Shown here piece by piece: positions 14,154 through 39,688 of a stretch of 40,129 nucleotides of DNA. Below the pieces are notes generated by a model, which saw nothing but the letters and a program-made list of their open reading frames with translations, was not told where the DNA came from and made no database searches. This stretch comes from Patescibacteria group bacterium. GTDB taxonomy: Bacteria; Patescibacteriota; Patescibacteriia; Magasanikbacterales; GWA2-37-8. Numbering within the stretch: the stretch's first letter is position 1; the number at the start of each line of letters is the position of its first letter. The stretch spans positions 1-40,129 of the forward strand of contig SCQK01000006.1 in NCBI GenBank assembly GCA_004321885.1. Direction: 5' to 3'. Made by a program: the position numbers and the translations under genes.

Positions 14154-14225
14154 GCGGGTGTAGCACAATGGTTAGTGCGTGTGCTTGCCAAGCATAAGAC
14201 GAGGGTTCGATTCCCTTCACCCGCT
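14154..14225 (+). tRNA. tRNA-Gly (anticodon GCC)
   Basis: Acceptor GCGGGTG/CACCCGC, D-arm GCAC..GTGC, anticodon loop TTGCCAA, T-loop GGTTCGATTCC. Confidence 0.8.
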
Positions 14226-14226
14226 C

Positions 14227-14299
14227 AGCGGGGTAGAGCAACTGGCAGCTCGCAGGGCCCATAACCCTGAGGTTCCCGGTTCAAGTCCGGGCCCCGCAA
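14227..14299 (+). tRNA. initiator tRNA-fMet (anticodon CAT)
   Basis: Anticodon loop CCCATAA; three consecutive G:C pairs closing the anticodon stem (GGG/CCC), a 1:72 A*A mismatch and an A11:U24 pair, all hallmarks of bacterial initiator tRNA; starts 1-2 nt after tRNA-Gly. Confidence 0.75.
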
Positions 14300-14307
14300 C
14301 AACGTAG

Positions 14308-14364
14308 GACGAGCGGAAGTGTTCCGCCTCTGTTCTGACATGGTCAATCCATGCCAACAACGAG
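14308..14364 (+). repeat. direct repeat DR1 (~55 bp) bounding the Fic cassette, immediately 3' of tRNA-fMet
   Basis: GACGAGCGGAAGTGTTCCGCCTCTGTTCTGACATGGTCAATCCATGCCAACAACGAG; ~90% identical to DR2; contains the inner palindrome GCGGAAgtgTTCCGC. Confidence 0.7.
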
Positions 14365-14469
14365 TAGGCTAACGATGACCCTCAGAACGAGGGTCATTTG
14401 GTTTCAGATTAGTCAGCAACTCTTGACCTATCTTATATAATCATATATACTCAAAATATAAGATGATAT

Positions 14470-15549
14470 ATGCTGAGAATCCAAAATCGCGGCCGGGGGA
14501 ATCGCCTTGACCGCCGACTAGCCAATCTTCCGTCCGGAGTCTGGTCCAAAATCGCGCAGGTAGATGAACTTAAGGGCCAGTGGATTGCCGGGGCTGAACT
14601 TTCGTCCCAGGTTTTGGGCCGCTTAAAGCGGTCGGTTTTGATTACCTCCGCCGGTGCTTCTACTCGCATTGAAGGCGCGCGACTATCCGACGAAGACGTC
14701 GAAAAAATGATGCGCGGCATTGATATTCAGAAATTCAGAGATCGTGACAAGCAAGAAGTGAAAGGGTATCATGAGCTTCTGGGGAATATGTTTGATTCTT
14801 GGAAGAGTTTGCAGTTCTCCGAGAACGCCATCAAACATTGTCACAAAGAACTCCTCAAATATGTGGAGAAAGACGAGGCGCATCGGGGCAGATACAAGAA
14901 GCAAGAGAATCGCGTGCAGATGGTAAATGCGGCCGGACAACCCGTGAGCGTGCTTTTTGATACCACACCGGCATATTTGGCGCCCAAAGAAACGCAGGAG
15001 CTCGCACAGTGGACGCGGAAGGCTCTGGAAACCGGCCAACATCATCCGTTGTTAGTCATCGGTAACTTTGTCGTTGAGTTCTTGGCCATCCATCCTTTCA
15101 CCGATGGTAACGGGCGTCTGTCGCGCGTTCTCACCAATCTGCTATTGCTCAAAGCGGGGTACCTTTATGTTCCATACGTATCGCACGAGAAGCTCATCGA
15201 GGACAACAAGCCAGATTACTATGTAGCCCTGCGGCGCAGCCAGAGGACGTTCAGGTCAAAGAGAGAAGACATTGCCCCGTGGCTCCATTTTTTTCTGGAT
15301 GTCGCGTTCAAGCAGGCGCAAATGGCGGTTGACTTGCTGTCCAAAGAAAACATTGAAAAACTGTTATCGCCAAAGCAACTGCAAGTCTGGCAGTACTTGC
15401 AGGGAGTAATTGAAGCGACAGCCGGAAAGATAGCCAAAGCCACAGGCGTCGCGCGTCCAACTATCAACCAGGCAGTGGACAAGCTCTTACGCTTGAAGAA
15501 GGTGGAACGCATCGGCCTTGGGCCCACGACAAGATACCGGAAGTTATGA
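14470..15549 (+). CDS. fic: Fic/DOC family protein with a C-terminal winged-HTH
   Basis: 359 aa; canonical Fic motif HPFTDGNGRLSR; C-terminal KIAKATGVARPTINQAVDKLLRLKKVERIG HTH; GC-rich relative to the genome. Confidence 0.85.
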   Translation: MLRIQNRGRGNRLDRRLANLPSGVWSKIAQVDELKGQWIAGAELSSQVLGRLKRSVLITSAGASTRIEGARLSDEDVEKMMRGIDIQKFRDRDKQEVKGYHELLGNMFDSWKSLQFSENAIKHCHKELLKYVEKDEAHRGRYKKQENRVQMVNAAGQPVSVLFDTTPAYLAPKETQELAQWTRKALETGQHHPLLVIGNFVVEFLAIHPFTDGNGRLSRVLTNLLLLKAGYLYVPYVSHEKLIEDNKPDYYVALRRSQRTFRSKREDIAPWLHFFLDVAFKQAQMAVDLLSKENIEKLLSPKQLQVWQYLQGVIEATAGKIAKATGVARPTINQAVDKLLRLKKVERIGLGPTTRYRKL

Positions 15550-15604
15550 CGAGCGGAAGTATTCCGCCTCTGTTCTCTGACATGGTTAATCCATGCCAAC
15601 GACG
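15548..15604 (+). repeat. direct repeat DR2
   Basis: GACGAGCGGAAGTATTCCGCCTCTGTTCTCTGACATGGTTAATCCATGCCAACGACGG; starts at the Fic stop codon; followed by a degenerate partial copy GGGCGGAAGTATTTCGCCGCTCG (15608-15632). Confidence 0.7.
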
Positions 15605-15705
15605 GATGGGCGGAAGTATTTCGCCGCTCGCCACAGGGCAGATTGGCCAATCATAGATTAAAGGGCATCGTATTAGACACCCTTTTGTTGTCCGCATAAA
15701 TCAAA

Positions 15706-15751
15706 AACTCCCGCACAAGCGCTCTGCCGAAGCAGTTCTTGTGCGGGAGTT
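15706..15751 (-). terminator. strong hairpin terminator (14-bp perfect stem) for the minus-strand hypothetical gene
   Basis: AACTCCCGCACAAG-N18-CTTGTGCGGGAGTT, flanked by an A-run on + (T-run on the minus strand). Confidence 0.65.
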
Positions 15752-15794
15752 TATCGTTCGAGGACTTAACGCATTAAGCTAATGCATAGTGGTC

Positions 15795-16442
15795 CTACTT
15801 GTACGCAAGGAAGGCAGTGCCTCTTCCCCATCCACCCCGAGCCCACCAACTGACGACCAATTCGAGGGTGGGGTGTGGAACCGAAGCATCCACCTCGCCC
15901 AACGCACGCGCATGAAAGCCAGGATTGGGACCCCTGACGACAACTGCGGGCACGCGAGGCCCATCCTCCGTGCTGGGGAAATCAGGATCTTCCGGTTTTG
16001 TGCCCTCCCAGACAGAACCCAGAGCTATCATGCAGTGGCACGCACAGTAGATCTCAAACCAGAATGGGTCGTTGAAGGCGAGCAGGTGTTCGATCCCGGC
16101 CGGCTTGAAACCGACACAGCGAATGTGTTCCACCGCATGCTCTGAACACGTGTCGTGGTTAGACACGAAGACCTTCAACTCCACCGTTTTTTTCCCAGTG
16201 CCCTTGATCGGGAAGTGCTCATAGGTGAGGTCACTATCCACCTTGCCGTAATGGCCATCGGAGGTCATCTCCCCCAGCGAACGGCTGTAGTCGATGGTGA
16301 CTGTTTTCTTCGAGTGTAGAGGATGAAGTACCTCCACCTTGCGGGGGTCCCGCAGATATGCCTGCAGGCCTTCCCTGGTGACCCGGCCGGACTTGATTTG
16401 TGCATGGAGTTCTGTGAGCTGCTCAACAGTCGGGGTAGGCAT
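15795..16442 (-). CDS. hypothetical protein (GC-rich cassette gene)
   Basis: ORF 15795..16502; the internal ATG at 16442 (MPTPTVEQ...) is preceded by GGGAGAG SD; Cys/His-rich middle region (HDTCSEHAVEHIRC ... YCACHC); no family recognised. Confidence 0.55.
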   Translation of the reverse strand: MPTPTVEQLTELHAQIKSGRVTREGLQAYLRDPRKVEVLHPLHSKKTVTIDYSRSLGEMTSDGHYGKVDSDLTYEHFPIKGTGKKTVELKVFVSNHDTCSEHAVEHIRCVGFKPAGIEHLLAFNDPFWFEIYCACHCMIALGSVWEGTKPEDPDFPSTEDGPRVPAVVVRGPNPGFHARALGEVDASVPHPTLELVVSWWARGGWGRGTAFLAYK

Positions 16443-16614
16443 GGATTCTCTCCCTGCATCCGTTGGTAAAAGCACCAACACATTCGGCTTCATGCCGAAC
16501 ATGTTGGAGGTTAGCCAGCGGACACACTGTGGCCAGGAGCCAATCTCCCAGCCTTATTTCTAAGCCGGAGTGGGCTCAAAAATAGGGCAAGGAGATCATT
16601 GTAAAGAGCAGACC

Positions 16615-16643
16615 AATATAGCATATTTGGAAGTTTTTGTCAA
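16615..16643 (-). promoter_or_regulatory. putative sigma70 promoter (minus strand) for the 15795-16442 gene
   Basis: On the minus strand: TTGACA (rc of 16638-16643), 17-nt spacer, TATATT (rc of 16615-16620). Confidence 0.4.
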
Positions 16644-16740
16644 TGATAGCGCTTCCAAAAGATACGGCTTTGAATATATGAAGAACAAACCCTAATTGCT
16701 TTCTCAAGAATTTTGGTTATCCCCAACGAGGGCCGTTTTT

Positions 16741-16764
16741 ACGTAGTCCTTCCATGCCAACACA
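16741..16764 (+). repeat. truncated third copy of the cassette direct repeat (DR3)
   Basis: ACGTAGTCCTTCCATGCCAACACA shares the ACGTAG(G) lead and the TCCATGCCAAC core of DR1/DR2. Confidence 0.5.
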
Positions 16765-16768
16765 CACA

Positions 16769-16800
16769 AAAGAACCCCGATTAAATCGGGGTTCTTTTTG
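16769..16800 (-). terminator. rho-independent terminator (bidirectional hairpin) downstream of the AI-2E transporter gene
   Basis: AGAACCCCGA-TTAAA-TCGGGGTTCT followed by TTTTTG. Confidence 0.7.
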
Positions 16801-16812
16801 TCAGTGAAAATT

Positions 16813-17907
16813 TTATCCCTGCTTTTCCAATTCTTTCCGATACTGGTGTTCGTACATCTCCCAGAAAGAAATGAGCAGGGCGGTGATGATGGGGCCGATG
16901 ACAAAACCCGAGATGCCGAAGACAACTAAACCGCCCAGAGTGGAAAACAGTATCAGCAAAGGGTGCATCTGCGTGTCTTTGCCCACCAGAATCGGACGCA
17001 GGATGTTGTCGATGGTGCCGATAATCAGGGCGCCGAAAATGATAATTAAAATGCCCTGCCAGATATTGCCCAGCGCGAACATGATGATAGCCGCCGGCAA
17101 CCAGATGATATAGGAACCCAGGCCCGGGACAATGGAAGTAAGAACCATAATCAGCCCCCAGACTAAAGCCCCTTTAATTCCCACGATAAAAAACAGTATG
17201 GTGCCCAAGGCGCCCTGGATCAGCCCGACCAGCAGGGTGCCTTTGATGGCGGCCCGCGCCGTGGAGGCGAACTTTTGATACAACATCATTTCGTTTTTGT
17301 CGCCGATGGGGGACAGGCGCATCAATTTTTTTAAGAATCGTTCGCCGTCGCGCAAAAAGTAAAACATGGTGTAGAACATGATGATAAACATCACGATGAA
17401 TATCAGCGAATTCTGGGTGAAATTTTTGACCGTATTGAAAATAAAGTCGCCGAATGTTTTGCTCGCTTCCGCCAGTTTGTCTATCCAGAATTGTTCGTCA
17501 AAATTCAGTTTGCTGGCATAGGGGTTGTTTTTTATTTTTTCAAAAATTTGCGAGGCGCTACTTATGATGTGGCCGCGGTTGCTGTCCAGGGTGCCATAGA
17601 GGTCGATGGATTCCTTGATGAGCAAACTGCCGAGCAGGGTAACCGGGATGATAATGATGACCAGGATAAGCAAAAGCGACAGCACCACGCTTAGGTTGGT
17701 GTATTTTATTTTCGCCCGCAATTTTCGGTAGACCGGATAAAAGATGCTGGCGATAATGGCCGCCCAAAAAAGCGGATAGAAAAACACGCGCACGATATAG
17801 AAGAAGTAGAGCGTGATGGCGGCCAGCAGGCCGAAGAAAATGACGTTGCGTACTTTGGTGAAATCCATAGGAATGACAATAATGATATTATAGCAATTTT
17901 TTTTCAT
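16813..17907 (-). CDS. AI-2E family transporter (PerM/YhhT-like, UPF0118)
   Basis: 364 aa; 8 TM helices and the characteristic central and C-terminal membrane topology of AI-2E permeases. Confidence 0.8.
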   Translation of the reverse strand: MKKNCYNIIIVIPMDFTKVRNVIFFGLLAAITLYFFYIVRVFFYPLFWAAIIASIFYPVYRKLRAKIKYTNLSVVLSLLLILVIIIIPVTLLGSLLIKESIDLYGTLDSNRGHIISSASQIFEKIKNNPYASKLNFDEQFWIDKLAEASKTFGDFIFNTVKNFTQNSLIFIVMFIIMFYTMFYFLRDGERFLKKLMRLSPIGDKNEMMLYQKFASTARAAIKGTLLVGLIQGALGTILFFIVGIKGALVWGLIMVLTSIVPGLGSYIIWLPAAIIMFALGNIWQGILIIIFGALIIGTIDNILRPILVGKDTQMHPLLILFSTLGGLVVFGISGFVIGPIITALLISFWEMYEHQYRKELEKQG

Positions 17908-25645: not shown

Positions 25646-26281
25646 ATGATGAATCTTGTGAAGAAGACCTACCTGGTTTGCGAGTTCGCTCCTGCCTTCC
25701 TGGACATCGTGGATGACGGGGAGCGCGGCGGTTTGTATCTGCCGGGCATCATGGATGCGTTGAAGCAGCTCAGAGAGGTTGAGATCTCATCTCGTGATCT
25801 CTCTCAACTCAAAATCCCGGAAGGTGTTTACCGCTTTCGCTTCTTTGACTGCCTGGAGGCGATTGTGAAAGAAGCGGGGGAGAAAGTCGTTCTCCGTAGC
25901 AAGGAGATGAGCCATTCCCCGTGGCATTACTCGGAGGAACAGGGCCGCCTGTTCACGCCGGACATGCCTGACTTCCTCACCGAGGAGGAAGACAAACGGC
26001 TGGACGAAGCTGGTCTGACCTGGGAGAAAAACCACGACGAGCTGGAGAAGTGGTGTCTCCGAGAGGCGGATCAGAAACTACTCACGCGCCTTCGACAGGT
26101 AAGGTGTATCGTGAAGCGCGCGTTCGTTCTCTTCCGTCTTCCGGACACTACGTCCTATGACCAGGACACGGTTTCCTTGGAGGACAGCGACATCTTCCTC
26201 CCCCGTGGGGAGATCGAGATCGACAACATCGTCGACCGTTGGGAGAACCCCAACGCCAGACATTTCTGCGTTCCTTGCTAG
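25646..26281 (+). CDS. hypothetical protein (GC-rich island gene)
   Basis: 211 aa; SD AAAGGAGA 7 nt upstream; acidic, no recognised motif; GC-rich relative to flanks; followed by a weak hairpin + T-run (26361-26386). Confidence 0.5.
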   Translation: MMNLVKKTYLVCEFAPAFLDIVDDGERGGLYLPGIMDALKQLREVEISSRDLSQLKIPEGVYRFRFFDCLEAIVKEAGEKVVLRSKEMSHSPWHYSEEQGRLFTPDMPDFLTEEEDKRLDEAGLTWEKNHDELEKWCLREADQKLLTRLRQVRCIVKRAFVLFRLPDTTSYDQDTVSLEDSDIFLPRGEIEIDNIVDRWENPNARHFCVPC

Positions 26282-26442: not shown

Positions 26443-26667
26443 ATGAATGTAGCTCTCAATATCAAAAATTTATTATGGGATGTTGACGCAAAAAAAGTGG
26501 ATGCAAGCAAACACAAAAGTTTTTTAATTTCGCGAATTTCTGAAAAAGGCGGTACGCGAGAAATAGCCTGGTTGCGCCGCCAATATTCGGATAAAGACAT
26601 CAAGAAAATCGTGGCGAAAAGCCGCAATGTTTCGGCAAAGACAAAAAATTTTTGGAAGCTGTTTTAA
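26443..26667 (+). CDS. small protein (74 aa) translationally coupled to the AbiEii-like nucleotidyltransferase; putative antitoxin/partner
   Basis: Lys-rich 74-aa ORF directly downstream of a consensus promoter; its stop TAA is immediately followed by the ATG of the next gene (TAATATG). Confidence 0.5.
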   Translation: MNVALNIKNLLWDVDAKKVDASKHKSFLISRISEKGGTREIAWLRRQYSDKDIKKIVAKSRNVSAKTKNFWKLF

Positions 26668-26668
26668 T

Positions 26669-27298
26669 ATGTTTTATCCAGAGGCGCTGACCGCGGAATC
26701 AATCGCTTTAATAAAAAAAATTAATGCGAGCAAATGGCTGTCTGATTTTTATTTGGCCGGCGGTACGGGTTTGGCTTTATGGTATGGCCATCGGCAATCG
26801 GTTGATTTGGATTTTTTTAGAAAAAGCGATATTGCCACCAAGCAATTGATAAAAAAATTGTCTTCGCTCGGCAGATTCAAATTATTGAATGAAGAAGAAA
26901 ACACGGTGGAGGGGATACTGGAAAAGGTGAAAGTTAGTTTCATGACTTATCCGTATGGTTTGTTGCGCAAGCGTCAGCCGTATGATGGCGTTATCTTTTT
27001 AGCAGAACCATTGGATATCGCCGTCATGAAAGTCGGAGCGATCGCCGACAGAAATACGAAGAAAGATTTTATTGACCTGTATGTTTTTTTACGGCGCGAG
27101 AACATGAGTTTAAAAAATTTGTTATCGCATCTGCGAAAAAAATTCAGCCGCGTGAATTACGATATTTTTCATTTATACAAATCCCTTGTCTATTTTGAGG
27201 ATGCCGACAAAGAACCTATGCCGAGGATGTTTATTGATTTAAAATGGGAAAAGGTCAGGCGATTTTTTAAAGACGAGGTTAGGAAGCTGGTGGCATGA
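26669..27298 (+). CDS. nucleotidyltransferase of the AbiEii/AbiGii (DUF1814-like) toxin family
   Basis: ORF 26627..27298, start re-chosen at 26669; LAGGTGLALWYGHRQSVDLDFF matches the GGTAL..HR.S.DLDF nucleotidyltransferase signature of AbiEii-type proteins. Confidence 0.6.
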   Translation: MFYPEALTAESIALIKKINASKWLSDFYLAGGTGLALWYGHRQSVDLDFFRKSDIATKQLIKKLSSLGRFKLLNEEENTVEGILEKVKVSFMTYPYGLLRKRQPYDGVIFLAEPLDIAVMKVGAIADRNTKKDFIDLYVFLRRENMSLKNLLSHLRKKFSRVNYDIFHLYKSLVYFEDADKEPMPRMFIDLKWEKVRRFFKDEVRKLVA

Positions 27299-38127: not shown

Positions 38128-38613
38128 ATGCGCCTTATCAATTTATATTTTTTTCTGGCTTTGCTTTTAGCGGTTTTTTTGTCCCCTGTCATTCCCGCGC
38201 AAGCTGAAAGTCCCTTTGGCACTGATGACGAGCAGGCTGGGCAGGCAAAGAAAAACGTTCAAGAGAAAGAAACCAAATCAAGCGAGCGCGCTTTGCCTTC
38301 GGTATTGCCAAACTGCGCCAAGACCGGCGATTTGTCCGCGAGTTCGCCCTGCCGCGATGTTTCCATATTCGTGGAGCTTGGCATCAACATCGCGCGCTAT
38401 TTGTTTTCCATTATCGGCGCGCTGGCCCTCTTAATGTTCGTCTACGGCGGCTTTATGCTGATACTGTCGGCCGGCAGCGCCGAGCGGGTGAAAAAAGGCG
38501 GTGAAATAATGCTGGCGGCTATGGTGGGACTCCTAATTTCATTTACCGCCTATATGCTGGTGCGCTTTTTGGGCGGGGCCGTGGGGCTTGGGAGTGAGTT
38601 TAAGTTGAAGTGA
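38128..38613 (+). CDS. TrbC/VirB2-like pilin family protein, paralog 1
   Basis: 161 aa; signal peptide, ~75-aa variable region with 2 Cys, then a conserved C-terminal two-helix hairpin ALALLMFVYGGFMLILSAGSAERVKKGGEIMLAAMVGLLISFTAYML; SD from element A9. Confidence 0.7.
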   Translation: MRLINLYFFLALLLAVFLSPVIPAQAESPFGTDDEQAGQAKKNVQEKETKSSERALPSVLPNCAKTGDLSASSPCRDVSIFVELGINIARYLFSIIGALALLMFVYGGFMLILSAGSAERVKKGGEIMLAAMVGLLISFTAYMLVRFLGGAVGLGSEFKLK

Positions 38614-38675
38614 CCCCGCTTAGCGGGGTTATTCTGACCATGCACCGCTCTGGTGCAGGGGAAGGATCCCTTAGT

Positions 38676-39290
38676 ATGAACAAGAAAAAAGTTGGAATGG
38701 TTATCATAATTTTATTGGCGGTATTTTTTTCTTTTTTGTTTGTTTCGTTTTCAGTAAAAGCCGCTTCAAATTGTTGGTGTAGCGTGCAGAACAAATGCAC
38801 TTTAAATATCCCGGCGGAAGAATGCGTGACGTTTGGACCAGATTGCCAATCGCAAGATACCTGCCCTGGTTATGTGGCTTGTTTTTGTGCCATGAAAAAT
38901 AATAGCTGTGAATTAGTGAAAGGCGGCGGGGAAGATTGTCAGGCGGCAGGTTGTAATATTTTAACCGAATGTCCCAAACCAGCGGAAAAACAGACTGACA
39001 CGTTTAGTAATTTACAACAGCAGGCCGCGAGTGGTCTGAATCCGGCCGGGTTTGGCGAGGTGCCGGATTTTATCGGTCAAGTTTTGAAGTTTCTAATGGG
39101 CGCCTTGGGTTCAATCGCTTTGGCGCTGTATGTGTGGGCTGGGTTTTTGTGGATGACCGCGGCTGGCAATGCTGAGCGCGCGGGCAAGGCCAAGACACTG
39201 TTGTTTTGGACCACTTTGGGCGTGGTGGGCGCTTTGGCCAGTTACACGCTCGTTAAGTTTATTTTCCAGGCCCTGGAACTAAGCGTATGA
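38676..39290 (+). CDS. TrbC/VirB2-like pilin family protein, paralog 2 (Cys-rich ectodomain)
   Basis: ORF 38610..39290, start re-chosen at 38676 (MNKKKVGMVIIILL...); 14 Cys in an ~80-aa variable domain, then the conserved hairpin SIALALYVWAGFLWMTAAGNAERAGKAKTLLFWTTLGVVGALASY. Confidence 0.7.
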   Translation: MNKKKVGMVIIILLAVFFSFLFVSFSVKAASNCWCSVQNKCTLNIPAEECVTFGPDCQSQDTCPGYVACFCAMKNNSCELVKGGGEDCQAAGCNILTECPKPAEKQTDTFSNLQQQAASGLNPAGFGEVPDFIGQVLKFLMGALGSIALALYVWAGFLWMTAAGNAERAGKAKTLLFWTTLGVVGALASYTLVKFIFQALELSV

Positions 39291-39688
39291 AAAAATTTTT
39301 ATTACTTTGTTTAGTTATATTTTTAGTCGCGTTATTTTTTCCTTTGGCGGGCTTGCGGGCCGAGGAGGCAAAAAAAGATTGCGCGCCCGACAGCACAGGC
39401 CAAATCGTGTGCAAATTACAGCCGCCGCTCTTGGGCAAAGATAAAAAACCCGTTACTGACCCGGCCGCGCTTGTCGGCATTATCATCAAGGGAGTTTTGG
39501 GCATTGTAGGTGCGCTCGCTTTATTGATGGTTTTTTGGGGCGCGGCTGGCTGGCTGTTCGCGGCCGGCAATCCGGAGAAAATTAAAGCCAGCACCAAAAC
39601 GATTGTTTGGGCTTTAATTGGGTTGCTGATAATTTTTGCCAGCTATATGTATATGAACGGCGTTTTGAAGTTTATGTTTGGCGGTTGA
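39287..39688 (+). CDS. TrbC/VirB2-like pilin family protein, paralog 3
   Basis: 133 aa; signal peptide, short variable region with 2 Cys, conserved hairpin ALALLMVFWGAAGWLFAAGNPEKIKASTKTIVWALIGLLIIFASYM; 4-nt overlap with paralog 2. Confidence 0.7.
   Translation: MKKFLLLCLVIFLVALFFPLAGLRAEEAKKDCAPDSTGQIVCKLQPPLLGKDKKPVTDPAALVGIIIKGVLGIVGALALLMVFWGAAGWLFAAGNPEKIKASTKTIVWALIGLLIIFASYMYMNGVLKFMFGG

Follow-up and report, generated by a model that had tools for sequence, protein, structure and literature searches.

Patescibacteria have tiny genomes with few recognised mobile elements, and their acquisition of accessory genes is poorly understood. Elements moved by HUH enzymes insert 3' of a short target without duplicating it, carry a hairpin a few nucleotides before the 3' cleavage site, and occur as tandem arrays and as miniatures consisting of ends only. 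Integron arrays and CALINs are made of single-gene units placed head to tail, each with a structured 3' repeat of about 60 bp, can include ORF-less units and can lack a nearby integrase. REP and BIME elements are small GC-rich hairpins just past stop codons and tRNA genes. Elements that target tRNAs are known to accrete in tandem and to leave decayed remnants, e.g. the tycheposons of Prochlorococcus (10.1101/2020.12.28.424599), which are found on the 3' side of an intact tRNA at a hot spot reused in related genomes, where newer units displace older ones outward and cargo-only remnants persist without integrase.

Here we describe a locus, from an uncultured Patescibacteria (CPR) genome, that appears to resemble each of these systems in the traits just listed and departs from each in others. 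Unlike in tycheposon-type islands, its repeats do not derive from part of the tRNA, with which they have just CAAC or CAACAACG in common, there is no integrase or integrase fragment, and the units are single-gene units of ~1.2 kb plus one of 58 bp. Unlike integrons, it has no inverted R''/R' cores (RYYYAAC...GTTRRRY), since AAC stands at both ends on the same strand; its repeat folds into a pair of small hairpins instead of a single long, bulged one, with the unit boundary 5 nt past the second; its genes point in opposite directions, each with a promoter of its own, and the platform is a tRNA end rather than attI. Identity with an integron or CALIN was rejected, as neither attC cores nor an integron integrase or attI were found beside the array. 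With IS200/IS605 PATEs, IS91 and Helitrons it has in common a subterminal hairpin close to its 3' end, an end-only miniature and tandem order, and, as far as one locus can show, insertion behind a 4-5-nt target that is not duplicated, but its hairpins are dissimilar, the contig has no HUH gene, and the two to three copies are confined to one locus instead of being dispersed. REP/BIME elements are dispersed as well, whereas no other copy of the present module was found in the 37.5 kb of flanks or in 1.56 Mb of relatives. Altogether the locus looks like a small decayed insertion array without its own enzyme rather than a new kind of system, and is a modest variation on the tRNA-associated island.

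The locus and the boundaries of the insertion

A tRNA-Gly/tRNA-fMet pair directly before the repeats had been claimed in an earlier note on this DNA, and both genes were recovered by ARAGORN and Rfam, the Rfam scan scoring nothing besides these two. The features of the locus, numbered within the window (the whole stretch of DNA analysed, 40,129 nucleotides), are:

14154-14226, plus strand: tRNA-Gly (gcc); ARAGORN, Rfam tRNA at 72 bits.
14227-14300, plus strand: tRNA-Met (cat), initiator type, with the 3' end ...CCCCGCAAC as insertion target; ARAGORN, Rfam.
14297-14304, plus strand: 8-bp junction sequence CAACAACG, first copy, overlapping the tRNA 3' end; left edge of a 58-bp strain indel.
14301-16761, plus strand: entire insertion, 2461 bp, by comparison with the empty sites of relatives.
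14301-14358, plus strand: unit 0, 58 bp, cargo-less (DR1, module 14305-14362); sequence reading and repeat analysis.
14355-14362, plus strand: 8-bp junction sequence CAACAACG, second copy; right edge of the 58-bp strain indel.
14359-15600, plus strand: unit 1, 1242 bp, with terminator hairpin (14375-14397), promoter (14423-14451), Fic gene and DR2 module; sequence and promoter/terminator reading.
14470-15549, plus strand: Fic gene, 359 aa, class II-like Fic AMP-transferase with C-terminal winged helix; PF02661, E = 1.9e-13, weak wHTH matches.
15545-15604, plus strand: DR2 module, beginning at the Fic stop codon; HP1 15553-15567, core TCCATGCCAAC 15590-15600, junction CAACGACG 15597-15604.
15601-16761, plus strand: unit 2, 1161 bp, with a partial first hairpin (15609-15625), a hypothetical gene (minus strand) and terminal TCCATGCCAAC; repeat analysis.
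15705-15752, no strand: perfect hairpin with 15-bp arms between the convergent Fic and hypothetical genes, candidate bidirectional terminator; inverted-repeat search.
15795-16442, minus strand: hypothetical gene, 215 aa, 5 Cys and 12 His; open reading frame.
16615-16643, minus strand: promoter-like site of the hypothetical gene, TTGACA-17-TATATT preceded by TG; promoter reading.
16751-16762, plus strand: DR3, third exact core copy, TCCATGCCAAC(A) = TCCATGCCAACA, 12 nt; right edge of the insertion.
16768-16798, no strand: ancestral bidirectional terminator, common to the tRNA operon and AI-2E; an equivalent hairpin lies directly 3' of the tRNA in empty sites.
16813-17907, minus strand: AI-2E family transporter gene, conserved right-hand neighbour; PF01594, E = 2e-58, synteny.

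The anticodon stem of tRNA-Met, as read from the sequence, is GGG/CCC and hence of the initiator type, and the 3' end of this tRNA is identical at 65 metagenome loci. An empty tRNA-fMet flank, suggested before as something to look for in relatives, was found in 11 of them (L089 and ten JGI/ENA loci), where the tRNA-Gly/tRNA-fMet pair converges on AI-2E at a distance of 47-88 bp and with nothing but a terminator in between; kinship with them is distant, AI-2E being 56-71% identical over the aligned stretches. Since tRNA-fMet abuts AI-2E without insert in these relatives, 14301-16761 is an insertion. It measures ~2.46 kb, begins 1 nt past the end of tRNA-Met, leaves the tRNA intact, and lies between the tRNA's ...CGCAAC and the ancestral terminator. 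Its right junction, ...GCCAAC followed by ACACACAAAAGAACCCCGAT, parallels the empty site of L094, ...CGCAAC followed by AAAACAACACAAAACTCCCCCGAT. In silico deletion of 14301-16761 leaves a gap of ~51 nt, near the range of the relatives, and this spacing indicates that the repeat module was imported with the inserted DNA rather than being native.

Two derivations of the module from the tRNA operon were rejected and a third was not supported. As a native tRNA trailer it aligns to the trailers of 65 relatives with a score of 22, compared with a shuffled mean of 21.5; as a duplicated tRNA 3' segment it has only CAAC or CAACAACG in common with the tRNA end; and, for the third, its second hairpin contains a TCAA reminiscent of a T-loop, yet as a degenerate T-arm or other piece of a tRNA it would have stem and loop of the wrong size and no acceptor partner.

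Four further relatives carry unrelated cargo at the same tRNA-fMet/AI-2E spot, which identifies it as an insertion hot spot; junction repeats were looked for at these four sites and none were found. The gap is thus a precisely delimited hot spot that is filled with different cargo across the clade. Of the site-specific integration proposed in the earlier note, the insertion at the tRNA-fMet 3' flank is supported, but the repeat is not tRNA-derived and, as shown below, DR1 and DR2 are not a simple attL/attR pair.

AI-2E is syntenic with polysaccharide-synthesis and SpoIID genes in the relatives, and on the upstream side lie tRNA genes and the genes of a small membrane protein and a phosphoesterase. 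A look-up of the membrane protein returned a single contig, which stops short of the junction, and synteny based on the phosphoesterase was uninformative, as none of 80 GTDB loci had the adjoining tRNA pair.

The repeat module and the three units

DR1 (14305-14362) and DR2 (15545-15604) are identical at 54 of 58 positions, with a 2-nt indel; the differences, from DR1 to DR2, are G/T, G/A, C/T and A/G. A 26-nt core pattern occurs twice in the 40-kb window, compared with 0 expected. Of the three copies of ~55 bp that had been reported, these two are therefore real, whereas DR3 consists only of the 12-nt exact core: identity over the surrounding 36 nt is 61%, and the copy escapes detection by nhmmer. 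The 11-mer core nevertheless has three exact copies in 40 kb versus ~0.02 expected by our own arithmetic. The inner palindrome described earlier, GCGGAAGT(G/A)TTCCGC, was recovered in DR1 (14313-14327) and in DR2 (15553-15567).

The minimum-free-energy fold of DR1 consists of two short hairpins, and as single-stranded DNA it folds with z = -3.2 (plus strand) and -3.9 (minus strand). In unit 0 the hairpins are HP1 (14313-14327; GCGGAA-GTG-TTCCGC) and HP2 (14339-14353; CATGG-TCAAT-CCATG), which have no sequence kinship, and the terminal TCCATGCCAAC lies at 14348-14358. HP1 starts 12 nt after a junction and HP2 ends 5 nt before one. The sole dyad near the junction is TGACATG-GTCAATC-CATGCCA (7-7-7); a Xer/dif module (IMEX, pdif), which would have a 28-bp dif-like site (11-6-11) at each boundary, is not apparent, as reading of the sequence gave no 11-6-11 dyad. 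A MITE with inverted ends was ruled out on sequence grounds. DR2 overlaps the Fic gene only by the gene's last five bases, and the partial further copy of the first hairpin follows right behind it.

The insertion is composed of three head-to-tail units, each terminating in the exact 11-mer TCCATGCCAAC. Unit starts read RACG..TAGG/ATGG, shared 5' ends that are short (~10 nt) and could be due to chance. DR1 is bounded by CAACAACG as an 8-bp direct repeat, and CAAC plus a purine (A or G) stands at the tRNA end, at both DR ends and at the right junction, giving every junction at the one locus available the form CAAC/R.

The explanation that we tentatively prefer is that non-autonomous units were inserted serially and site-specifically behind the tRNA CAAC by an enzyme supplied in trans. 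Three such units would have been added head to tail at one point, directly after the terminal CAAC of the initiator tRNA gene, and the right end of each would recreate the target, so that more units could join beside earlier ones. The ~58-bp repeat would be the right-end module, two small hairpins and then CCAAC, and presumably the binding and cleavage site of a putative recombinase or transposase which, not being encoded in the array or contig, would act in trans or have been lost. Unit 0 would then be a miniature consisting of ends only; unit 1 a Fic gene complete with terminator, promoter and coding sequence; and unit 2 a gene of unknown function whose right-end module would have decayed to the 12-nt core. 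In favour of this explanation are the empty sites, the ancestral gap, the hot spot, the shared unit ends, the strain polymorphism, the foreign cargo and the lack of further module copies in the collections searched. Against it stand the lack of a recombinase or transposase on the contig, the restriction of full module copies to two at one locus, the constancy of the two gene units among close strains, the microhomology around unit 0, the divergence of DR1 from DR2, the missing module at Fic homologues, the missing junction repeats at other occupied sites and the shortness of the shared 5' ends.

Strain polymorphism, searches and other explanations

The arrangement is not invariant among relatives, since it differs between strains. 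A strain contig (L082), 98.1% identical, lacks exactly the 58-bp unit bounded by CAACAACG and keeps Fic, its tRNA being joined straight to the Fic unit. Only unit 0 is polymorphic; the Fic and hypothetical-gene units were never seen absent from a close strain. As L082 keeps Fic without DR1, DR1 and DR2 are not simply attL and attR of a Fic cassette. This bears on the model of the earlier note, a classical tandem tRNA island in which one or two integrase elements entered at tRNA-fMet via a ~58-bp attB/attP block and the integrases and most of a third att site were later deleted, DR1, DR2 and DR3 being attL, attX and attR. The position at the 3' end of an intact tRNA, cargo bounded by direct repeats, relatives with empty sites, and the accretion and decay known from tycheposons count for this model. 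We nonetheless regard it as unlikely: besides the retention of Fic without the supposed attL, the repeat has no tRNA sequence beyond CAAC, the ancestral gap of ~51 nt is too small for a native 58-bp attB and no empty site resembles one, the half-copy right after DR2 is not predicted by a simple attL/attR pair, and an integrase remnant was not found on the contig.

The indel of unit 0 has 8 bp of microhomology at its edges, and replication slippage could account for it. Extended to the whole locus, the repeat might be no mobility site but a local duplication, 3'-UTR- or terminator-like, gained and lost by slippage or template switching at CAAC(A/G)ACG, while the Fic and hypothetical genes would have been brought in independently, through illegitimate or homology-facilitated recombination at an intergenic hot spot under little constraint. 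Consistent with this, the first hairpin plus CTCTGTTCT is terminator-like by score at both DR1 and DR2, DR2 starts at the Fic stop codon and has a partial copy in tandem behind it, the copies span no more than 2.5 kb, the search for an enzyme on the contig was negative, and repeats are missing from the other cargo at the hot spot. However, a strong terminator of the tRNA operon, much stronger than that of the module, stands 20 nt past DR1, and with the absence of DR1 from L082 this makes a terminator role there dispensable. Slippage also leaves unexplained why the same 11-mer lies at the extreme right edge, 6 nt from the ancestral terminator, and why the insert starts after CAAC and ends in CAAC. 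Moreover, DR1 and DR2 differ (4 substitutions and an indel in 58 nt) by more than the strain divergence in the Fic region (1.9%), which indicates that unit 0 is not a recent copy of DR2. Local duplication is, in our judgement, likewise an unlikely explanation.

Exact and degenerate repeat patterns had no occurrence in IMG/VR, GTDB genomes or JGI metagenomes (collections that exclude the source MAG), blastn of the repeat against plasmids and phages gave no match, and nhmmer on the window and 158 related loci (1.56 Mb) retrieved same-organism contigs only. Within the collections searched, the repeat is therefore not a widespread intergenic terminator motif; wide occurrence, like an invariant arrangement among relatives, would have contradicted the mobility proposed earlier, and neither was observed. 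Full copies of the module number two, both at one locus, with no independent second insertion site. The absence of an integrase, observed before, was confirmed for the 40-kb contig, which has no recombinase or transposase, no HUH (TnpA/Rep) gene and no integrase remnant; no recombinase Pfam match was obtained in the insert or in the 36 scanned ORFs.

A more specific mechanism, single-strand mobilisation by an HUH-type enzyme (IS200/IS605- or IS91/Helitron-like), would fit the lack of a target-site duplication beyond the target, the identity of the target with the 3'-terminal sequence, the spacing of HP2 and HP1 around the junction and the head-to-tail order of units; a 58-bp unit is too small for a double-stranded circle but feasible as single-stranded DNA. 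We consider it very improbable, since the two hairpins are dissimilar whereas IS200/IS605 ends have similar ones, a TnpA/Rep gene was not found on the contig, and other copies were found nowhere in the collections searched.

This lineage offers units with shared ends and strain-level presence or absence of a cargo-less unit. If the end module is an enzyme site, it would define a simple type of non-autonomous cassette and give a lead to the mobilising enzyme; otherwise the locus would be an ordinary decayed island. A bolder extension, which we think quite improbable, is that a gene-capture system specific to CPR bacteria has left this array as its trace. A trans-acting enzyme, possibly one that works on ssDNA, would add single-gene cassettes one behind the other exactly where the initiator tRNA gene ends, each cassette bringing a ~58-bp end module with two hairpins; the tRNA end would stand in for attI, and such a system would explain part of the varied cargo of the hot spot.

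Cargo and base composition

The first segment contains the Fic gene alone (PF02661), as had been stated. The protein has the Fic motif HPFTDGNGRLSR at residues 208-219, fitting HxFx(D/E)GNGRxxR, and an N-terminal inhibitory motif STRIEG at residue 64. With the C-terminal wHTH these are shared with SoFic-type (class II) proteins, and SoFic is the best NCBIfam match, but the protein scores far lower than the equivalog cut-off (54 versus 550 bits) and is part of a CPR-wide subfamily. More than 100 proteins spread over many CPR classes match it at 74-77% identity, and the gene stands alone in differing contexts; for comparison, the flanking housekeeping-type protein reaches at most 54% and AI-2E at most 66% identity to relatives. 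Being far more conserved across CPR classes than the adjacent core genes, Fic was counted as foreign cargo. Loci of Fic homologues in other genomes were free of tRNAs and of the module, and none had flanking repeats that were convincing.

In the second segment the gene, its own promoter and the hairpin described before as a terminator were recovered, the arms of the latter being 15 bp, but the two cargo genes are convergent and not divergent. The hypothetical protein comes from a large uncharacterised family whose fold is C-type-lectin-like, and within which it is divergent; it has no family match and is absent from the viral contigs searched. A role as recombinase or Fic partner was rejected, as a family match was missing, the fold is lectin-like and no link to recombination was seen. 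A diversity-generating retroelement, prompted by the lectin-like fold, was rejected as well: the repeats lie outside the hypothetical ORF, the DR1-to-DR2 differences given above are not those of a template/variable pair differing at adenines, and the contig has no RT. Two homologues of the hypothetical protein were seen on short contigs, one of them beside a PIN gene.

Both genes had been described as GC-rich against an AT-richer genome. This did not hold, as the GC content is 0.518 for Fic and 0.516 for the whole insert versus 0.506 for the window and a gene mean of 0.512 (sd 0.041); the hypothetical gene has 0.576, and two housekeeping-type genes are at 0.59-0.61.

Repeat module beside the tRNA pair

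The window spans an entire NCBI contig (40,129 bp) from the MAG of a Patescibacteria group bacterium; TAN33784-TAN33786 (locus tag EPN28_01390) are encoded on it, and its nearest relatives are Moraniibacteriota and Magasanikbacteria-like genomes. The locus adjoins two tRNA genes identified by ARAGORN:

14154-14226, tRNA-Gly(gcc)
14227-14300, tRNA-Met(cat)

Read from the sequence, the latter has a GGG/CCC anticodon stem, as initiator tRNAs typically do. Its anticodon loop, CCCAUAA (14259-14265), has C at position 33, where U is the usual base; the same holds for the relative's contig L089.

An earlier note described cargo bounded by direct repeats 3' of this tRNA as bearing the signature of site-specific integration. 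The arrangement is real and mostly correctly placed, and the integration reading holds in part. The two long repeats were confirmed, DR1 at 14305-14362 and DR2 at 15545-15604, with 54 of 58 positions identical and a 2-nt indel; the window has two matches to a 26-nt pattern derived from them, and shuffles have none. Both copies of this 58-bp module contain two small hairpins, HP1 (GCGGAA-GTR-TTCCGC) and HP2 (CATGG-TYAAT-CCATG), followed by CCAAC(A/G)ACG, and single-strand folds of the module beat shuffles (z -2.9 to -3.9). The proposed third copy, DR3, at the right edge, is much weaker than had been stated: only TCCATGCCAACA (16751-16762) is shared, and nhmmer did not detect the copy. The 11-mer TCCATGCCAAC is found in three exact copies in 40 kb against approximately 0.02 expected by our own arithmetic, and its single copy in 1.56 Mb of related loci was judged to be chance. 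Two features had been overlooked: a partial HP1 copy at 15609-15625, immediately after DR2, and an 8-bp direct repeat, CAACAACG, that brackets DR1 (14297-14304 and 14355-14362).

Insertion site and its occupancy in relatives

To the right of the insert lie genes for an AI-2E transporter, a polysaccharide-synthesis protein and SpoIID, in an order that is kept in relatives. In the NCBI contig L089, 47 bp that form a single bidirectional terminator separate the AI-2E stop from tRNA-Met and tRNA-Gly(gcc), which are encoded on the other strand. Metagenome contigs were scanned with the tRNA 3' end, by which 65 loci were returned. At ten of these the site is empty, the tRNA end and AI-2E being 53-88 bp apart, and four are occupied by 1.6-3.3 kb of unrelated cargo: a DnaJ-domain protein with two large proteins, a module of two genes, an NRAMP transporter, and NRAMP with a further gene. 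Occupied gaps between tRNA-fMet and AI-2E are found in L091, L103, L115 and L126 (also L107 and L154), and at none of these were junction repeats of at least 12 nt detected. The NRAMP gene at occupied sites has a structured leader, and in L115 a long inverted GC-rich repeat pair, GTCATTCCCGC...GCGGGAATGAC, which looks like a small palindromic repeat element, lies between NRAMP and AI-2E. On the far side of the tRNA pair from the insertion site, as far as tRNA-Gly(tcc), L089 (9400-16380) contains accessory genes, among them an rve integrase fragment, AbiEii, PDDEXK_11 and GNAT. The corresponding stretch of the window has a CutA-like gene, a phosphoesterase and a small membrane protein. The region looks like another variable segment with tRNA genes at its borders.

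The right junction of the window, ...TCCATGCCAAC followed by ACACACAAAAGAACCCCGATT, aligns with the empty site of relative L094, ...CCCCGCAAC followed by AAAACAACACAAAACTCCCCCGAT, and the inserted DNA is therefore 14301-16761. Its removal leaves a gap of approximately 51 nt, near the range of the relatives, which implies that the 58-bp module arrived as part of the inserted DNA and was not a native attB.

Unit structure and mechanism

The insert begins directly 3' of the tRNA's CAAC and likewise ends in CAAC. Cuts at each TCCATGCCAAC yield three head-to-tail units:

14301-14358, unit 0, 58 bp, starts AACGTAGG, ends only, no cargo
14359-15600, unit 1, 1242 bp, starts AACGAGTAGG, Fic gene
15601-16761, unit 2, 1161 bp, starts GACGGATGG, hypothetical gene

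A non-mobile 3'-UTR or terminator module, duplicated and spread by slippage, would agree with the terminator-like score of HP1 and with the local position of every copy, but is unlikely, since it leaves unexplained both the core at the insert's far right edge and the CAAC-to-CAAC boundaries.

Strain polymorphism was found in Logan contig L082 (SRR8426596), which is 98.1% identical to window 14275-15560 and joins ...CCCCGCAACAACG straight to AGTAGGCTAACG..., so that exactly unit 0 is absent while Fic and the start of DR2 are kept. L001, a contig of the sister run SRR8426592, shows no difference from the window and stops short of DR1. It follows that Fic does not require DR1 as an "attL", and that what varies is the 58-bp module as such. 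The divergence between DR1 and DR2 exceeds that between the two strains, so unit 0 did not arise as a recent copy of DR2; either L082 has lost it, through excision or through slippage at the 8-bp repeat, or it derives from another diverged copy. A classical attL/attR island, with the 58-bp block as its identity segment, is contradicted by the empty gap as reconstructed, by L082 and by the lack of tRNA sequence in the repeat; we consider it unlikely.

The best-supported reading, which we favour tentatively, is that non-autonomous units were inserted serially and site-specifically 3' of the tRNA's CAAC; the two-hairpin module would be their right-end recognition site, and the enzyme would act in trans or have been lost. 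Excision would then leave an empty-site junction of ...CCCCGCAAC joined to ACACACAAAAGAACCCC, and circle junctions would read ...TCCATGCCAAC joined to AACGAGTAGGC and ...TCCATGCCAAC joined to GACGGATGGGC. As had been claimed, no integrase is present: none of 36 scanned ORFs across the contig matches recombinase or transposase families. The present facts do not fix the enzyme class. The short common core (CAAC or CAACAACG) is compatible with tyrosine or serine recombinases of the short-core kind. Single-strand HUH systems would fit the absence of target duplication, a hairpin that lies 5 nt ahead of the junction and the 58-bp unit; against them stand the dissimilarity of HP1 and HP2 and the lack of an HUH gene among the scanned contig ORFs.

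The locus looks like an insertion array, decayed or non-autonomous, that occupies a tRNA hot spot of a CPR genome. It resembles tRNA-associated island hot spots in tandem accretion and decayed remnants, as in tycheposons (10.1101/2020.12.28.424599), but lacks both tRNA-derived repeats and an integrase, two defining features of tRNA-targeting elements. Like integron arrays, it is built of single-gene units that each bear a structured 3' site, and it includes one unit without an ORF, but attC cores, IntI and attI are missing. Within the window and the 1.56 Mb of related loci, the module does not behave as a dispersed REP-type repeat.

Cargo genes and other genes of the window

The cargo had been described as GC-rich and divergently oriented. 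Neither description stands: the two genes converge, and GC is 0.506 for the window, 0.518 for Fic, 0.516 for the whole insert and 0.576 for the hypothetical gene, with a gene mean of 0.512 (sd 0.041). Predicted regulatory features are:

14375-14397, terminator hairpin upstream of Fic
14423-14451, Fic promoter-like site, TTGACC-17-TATACT
15705-15752, perfect 15-bp-arm hairpin after the hypothetical gene's stop codon
16643-16615, near-consensus promoter of the hypothetical gene

The first, as a predicted terminator, insulates Fic from the tRNA operon. Between the promoter of the hypothetical gene and its start codon (16442), in a 5' leader of approximately 170 nt, lies a 14-bp-stem hairpin with a T-rich tail (16475-16507, minus strand), possibly an attenuator or regulatory structure.

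The Fic gene matches PF02661, and its protein has the catalytic motif HPFTDGNGRLSR, the N-terminal inhibitory motif STRIEG and a weak C-terminal winged-helix signal, with SoFic as top NCBIfam match. Over 100 proteins of Portnoy-, Peregrini-, Buchanan- and Parcubacteria and Omnitrophota, encoded by solitary genes in unrelated contexts, share 72-77% identity with it, while the flanking core proteins are less conserved, with 50-66% identity to their closest relatives (phosphoesterase at most 54%, AI-2E at most 66%). This conservation points to horizontal spread or very strong constraint; Fic GC is nonetheless host-like. At the homologue loci, L083 and L085-L087 among them, neither tRNAs nor the module lie beside the gene. 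A short AT-rich promoter/operator region upstream of Fic is conserved as well.

Elsewhere in the window, a likely toxin-antitoxin pair (2381-2990) consists of a Gp49/HigB-like toxin gene (PF05973) and the 90-aa ORF after it. An AbiEii-type toxin gene has a GC of 0.393 against the gene mean of 0.512 (26627-27298 and 25646-26281 region) and adjoins an unannotated 211-aa ORF with a GC of 0.557; together they are probably another acquired toxin-antitoxin pair. At the contig end, three consecutive genes (38128-39688) match T4SS pilin family PF18895.
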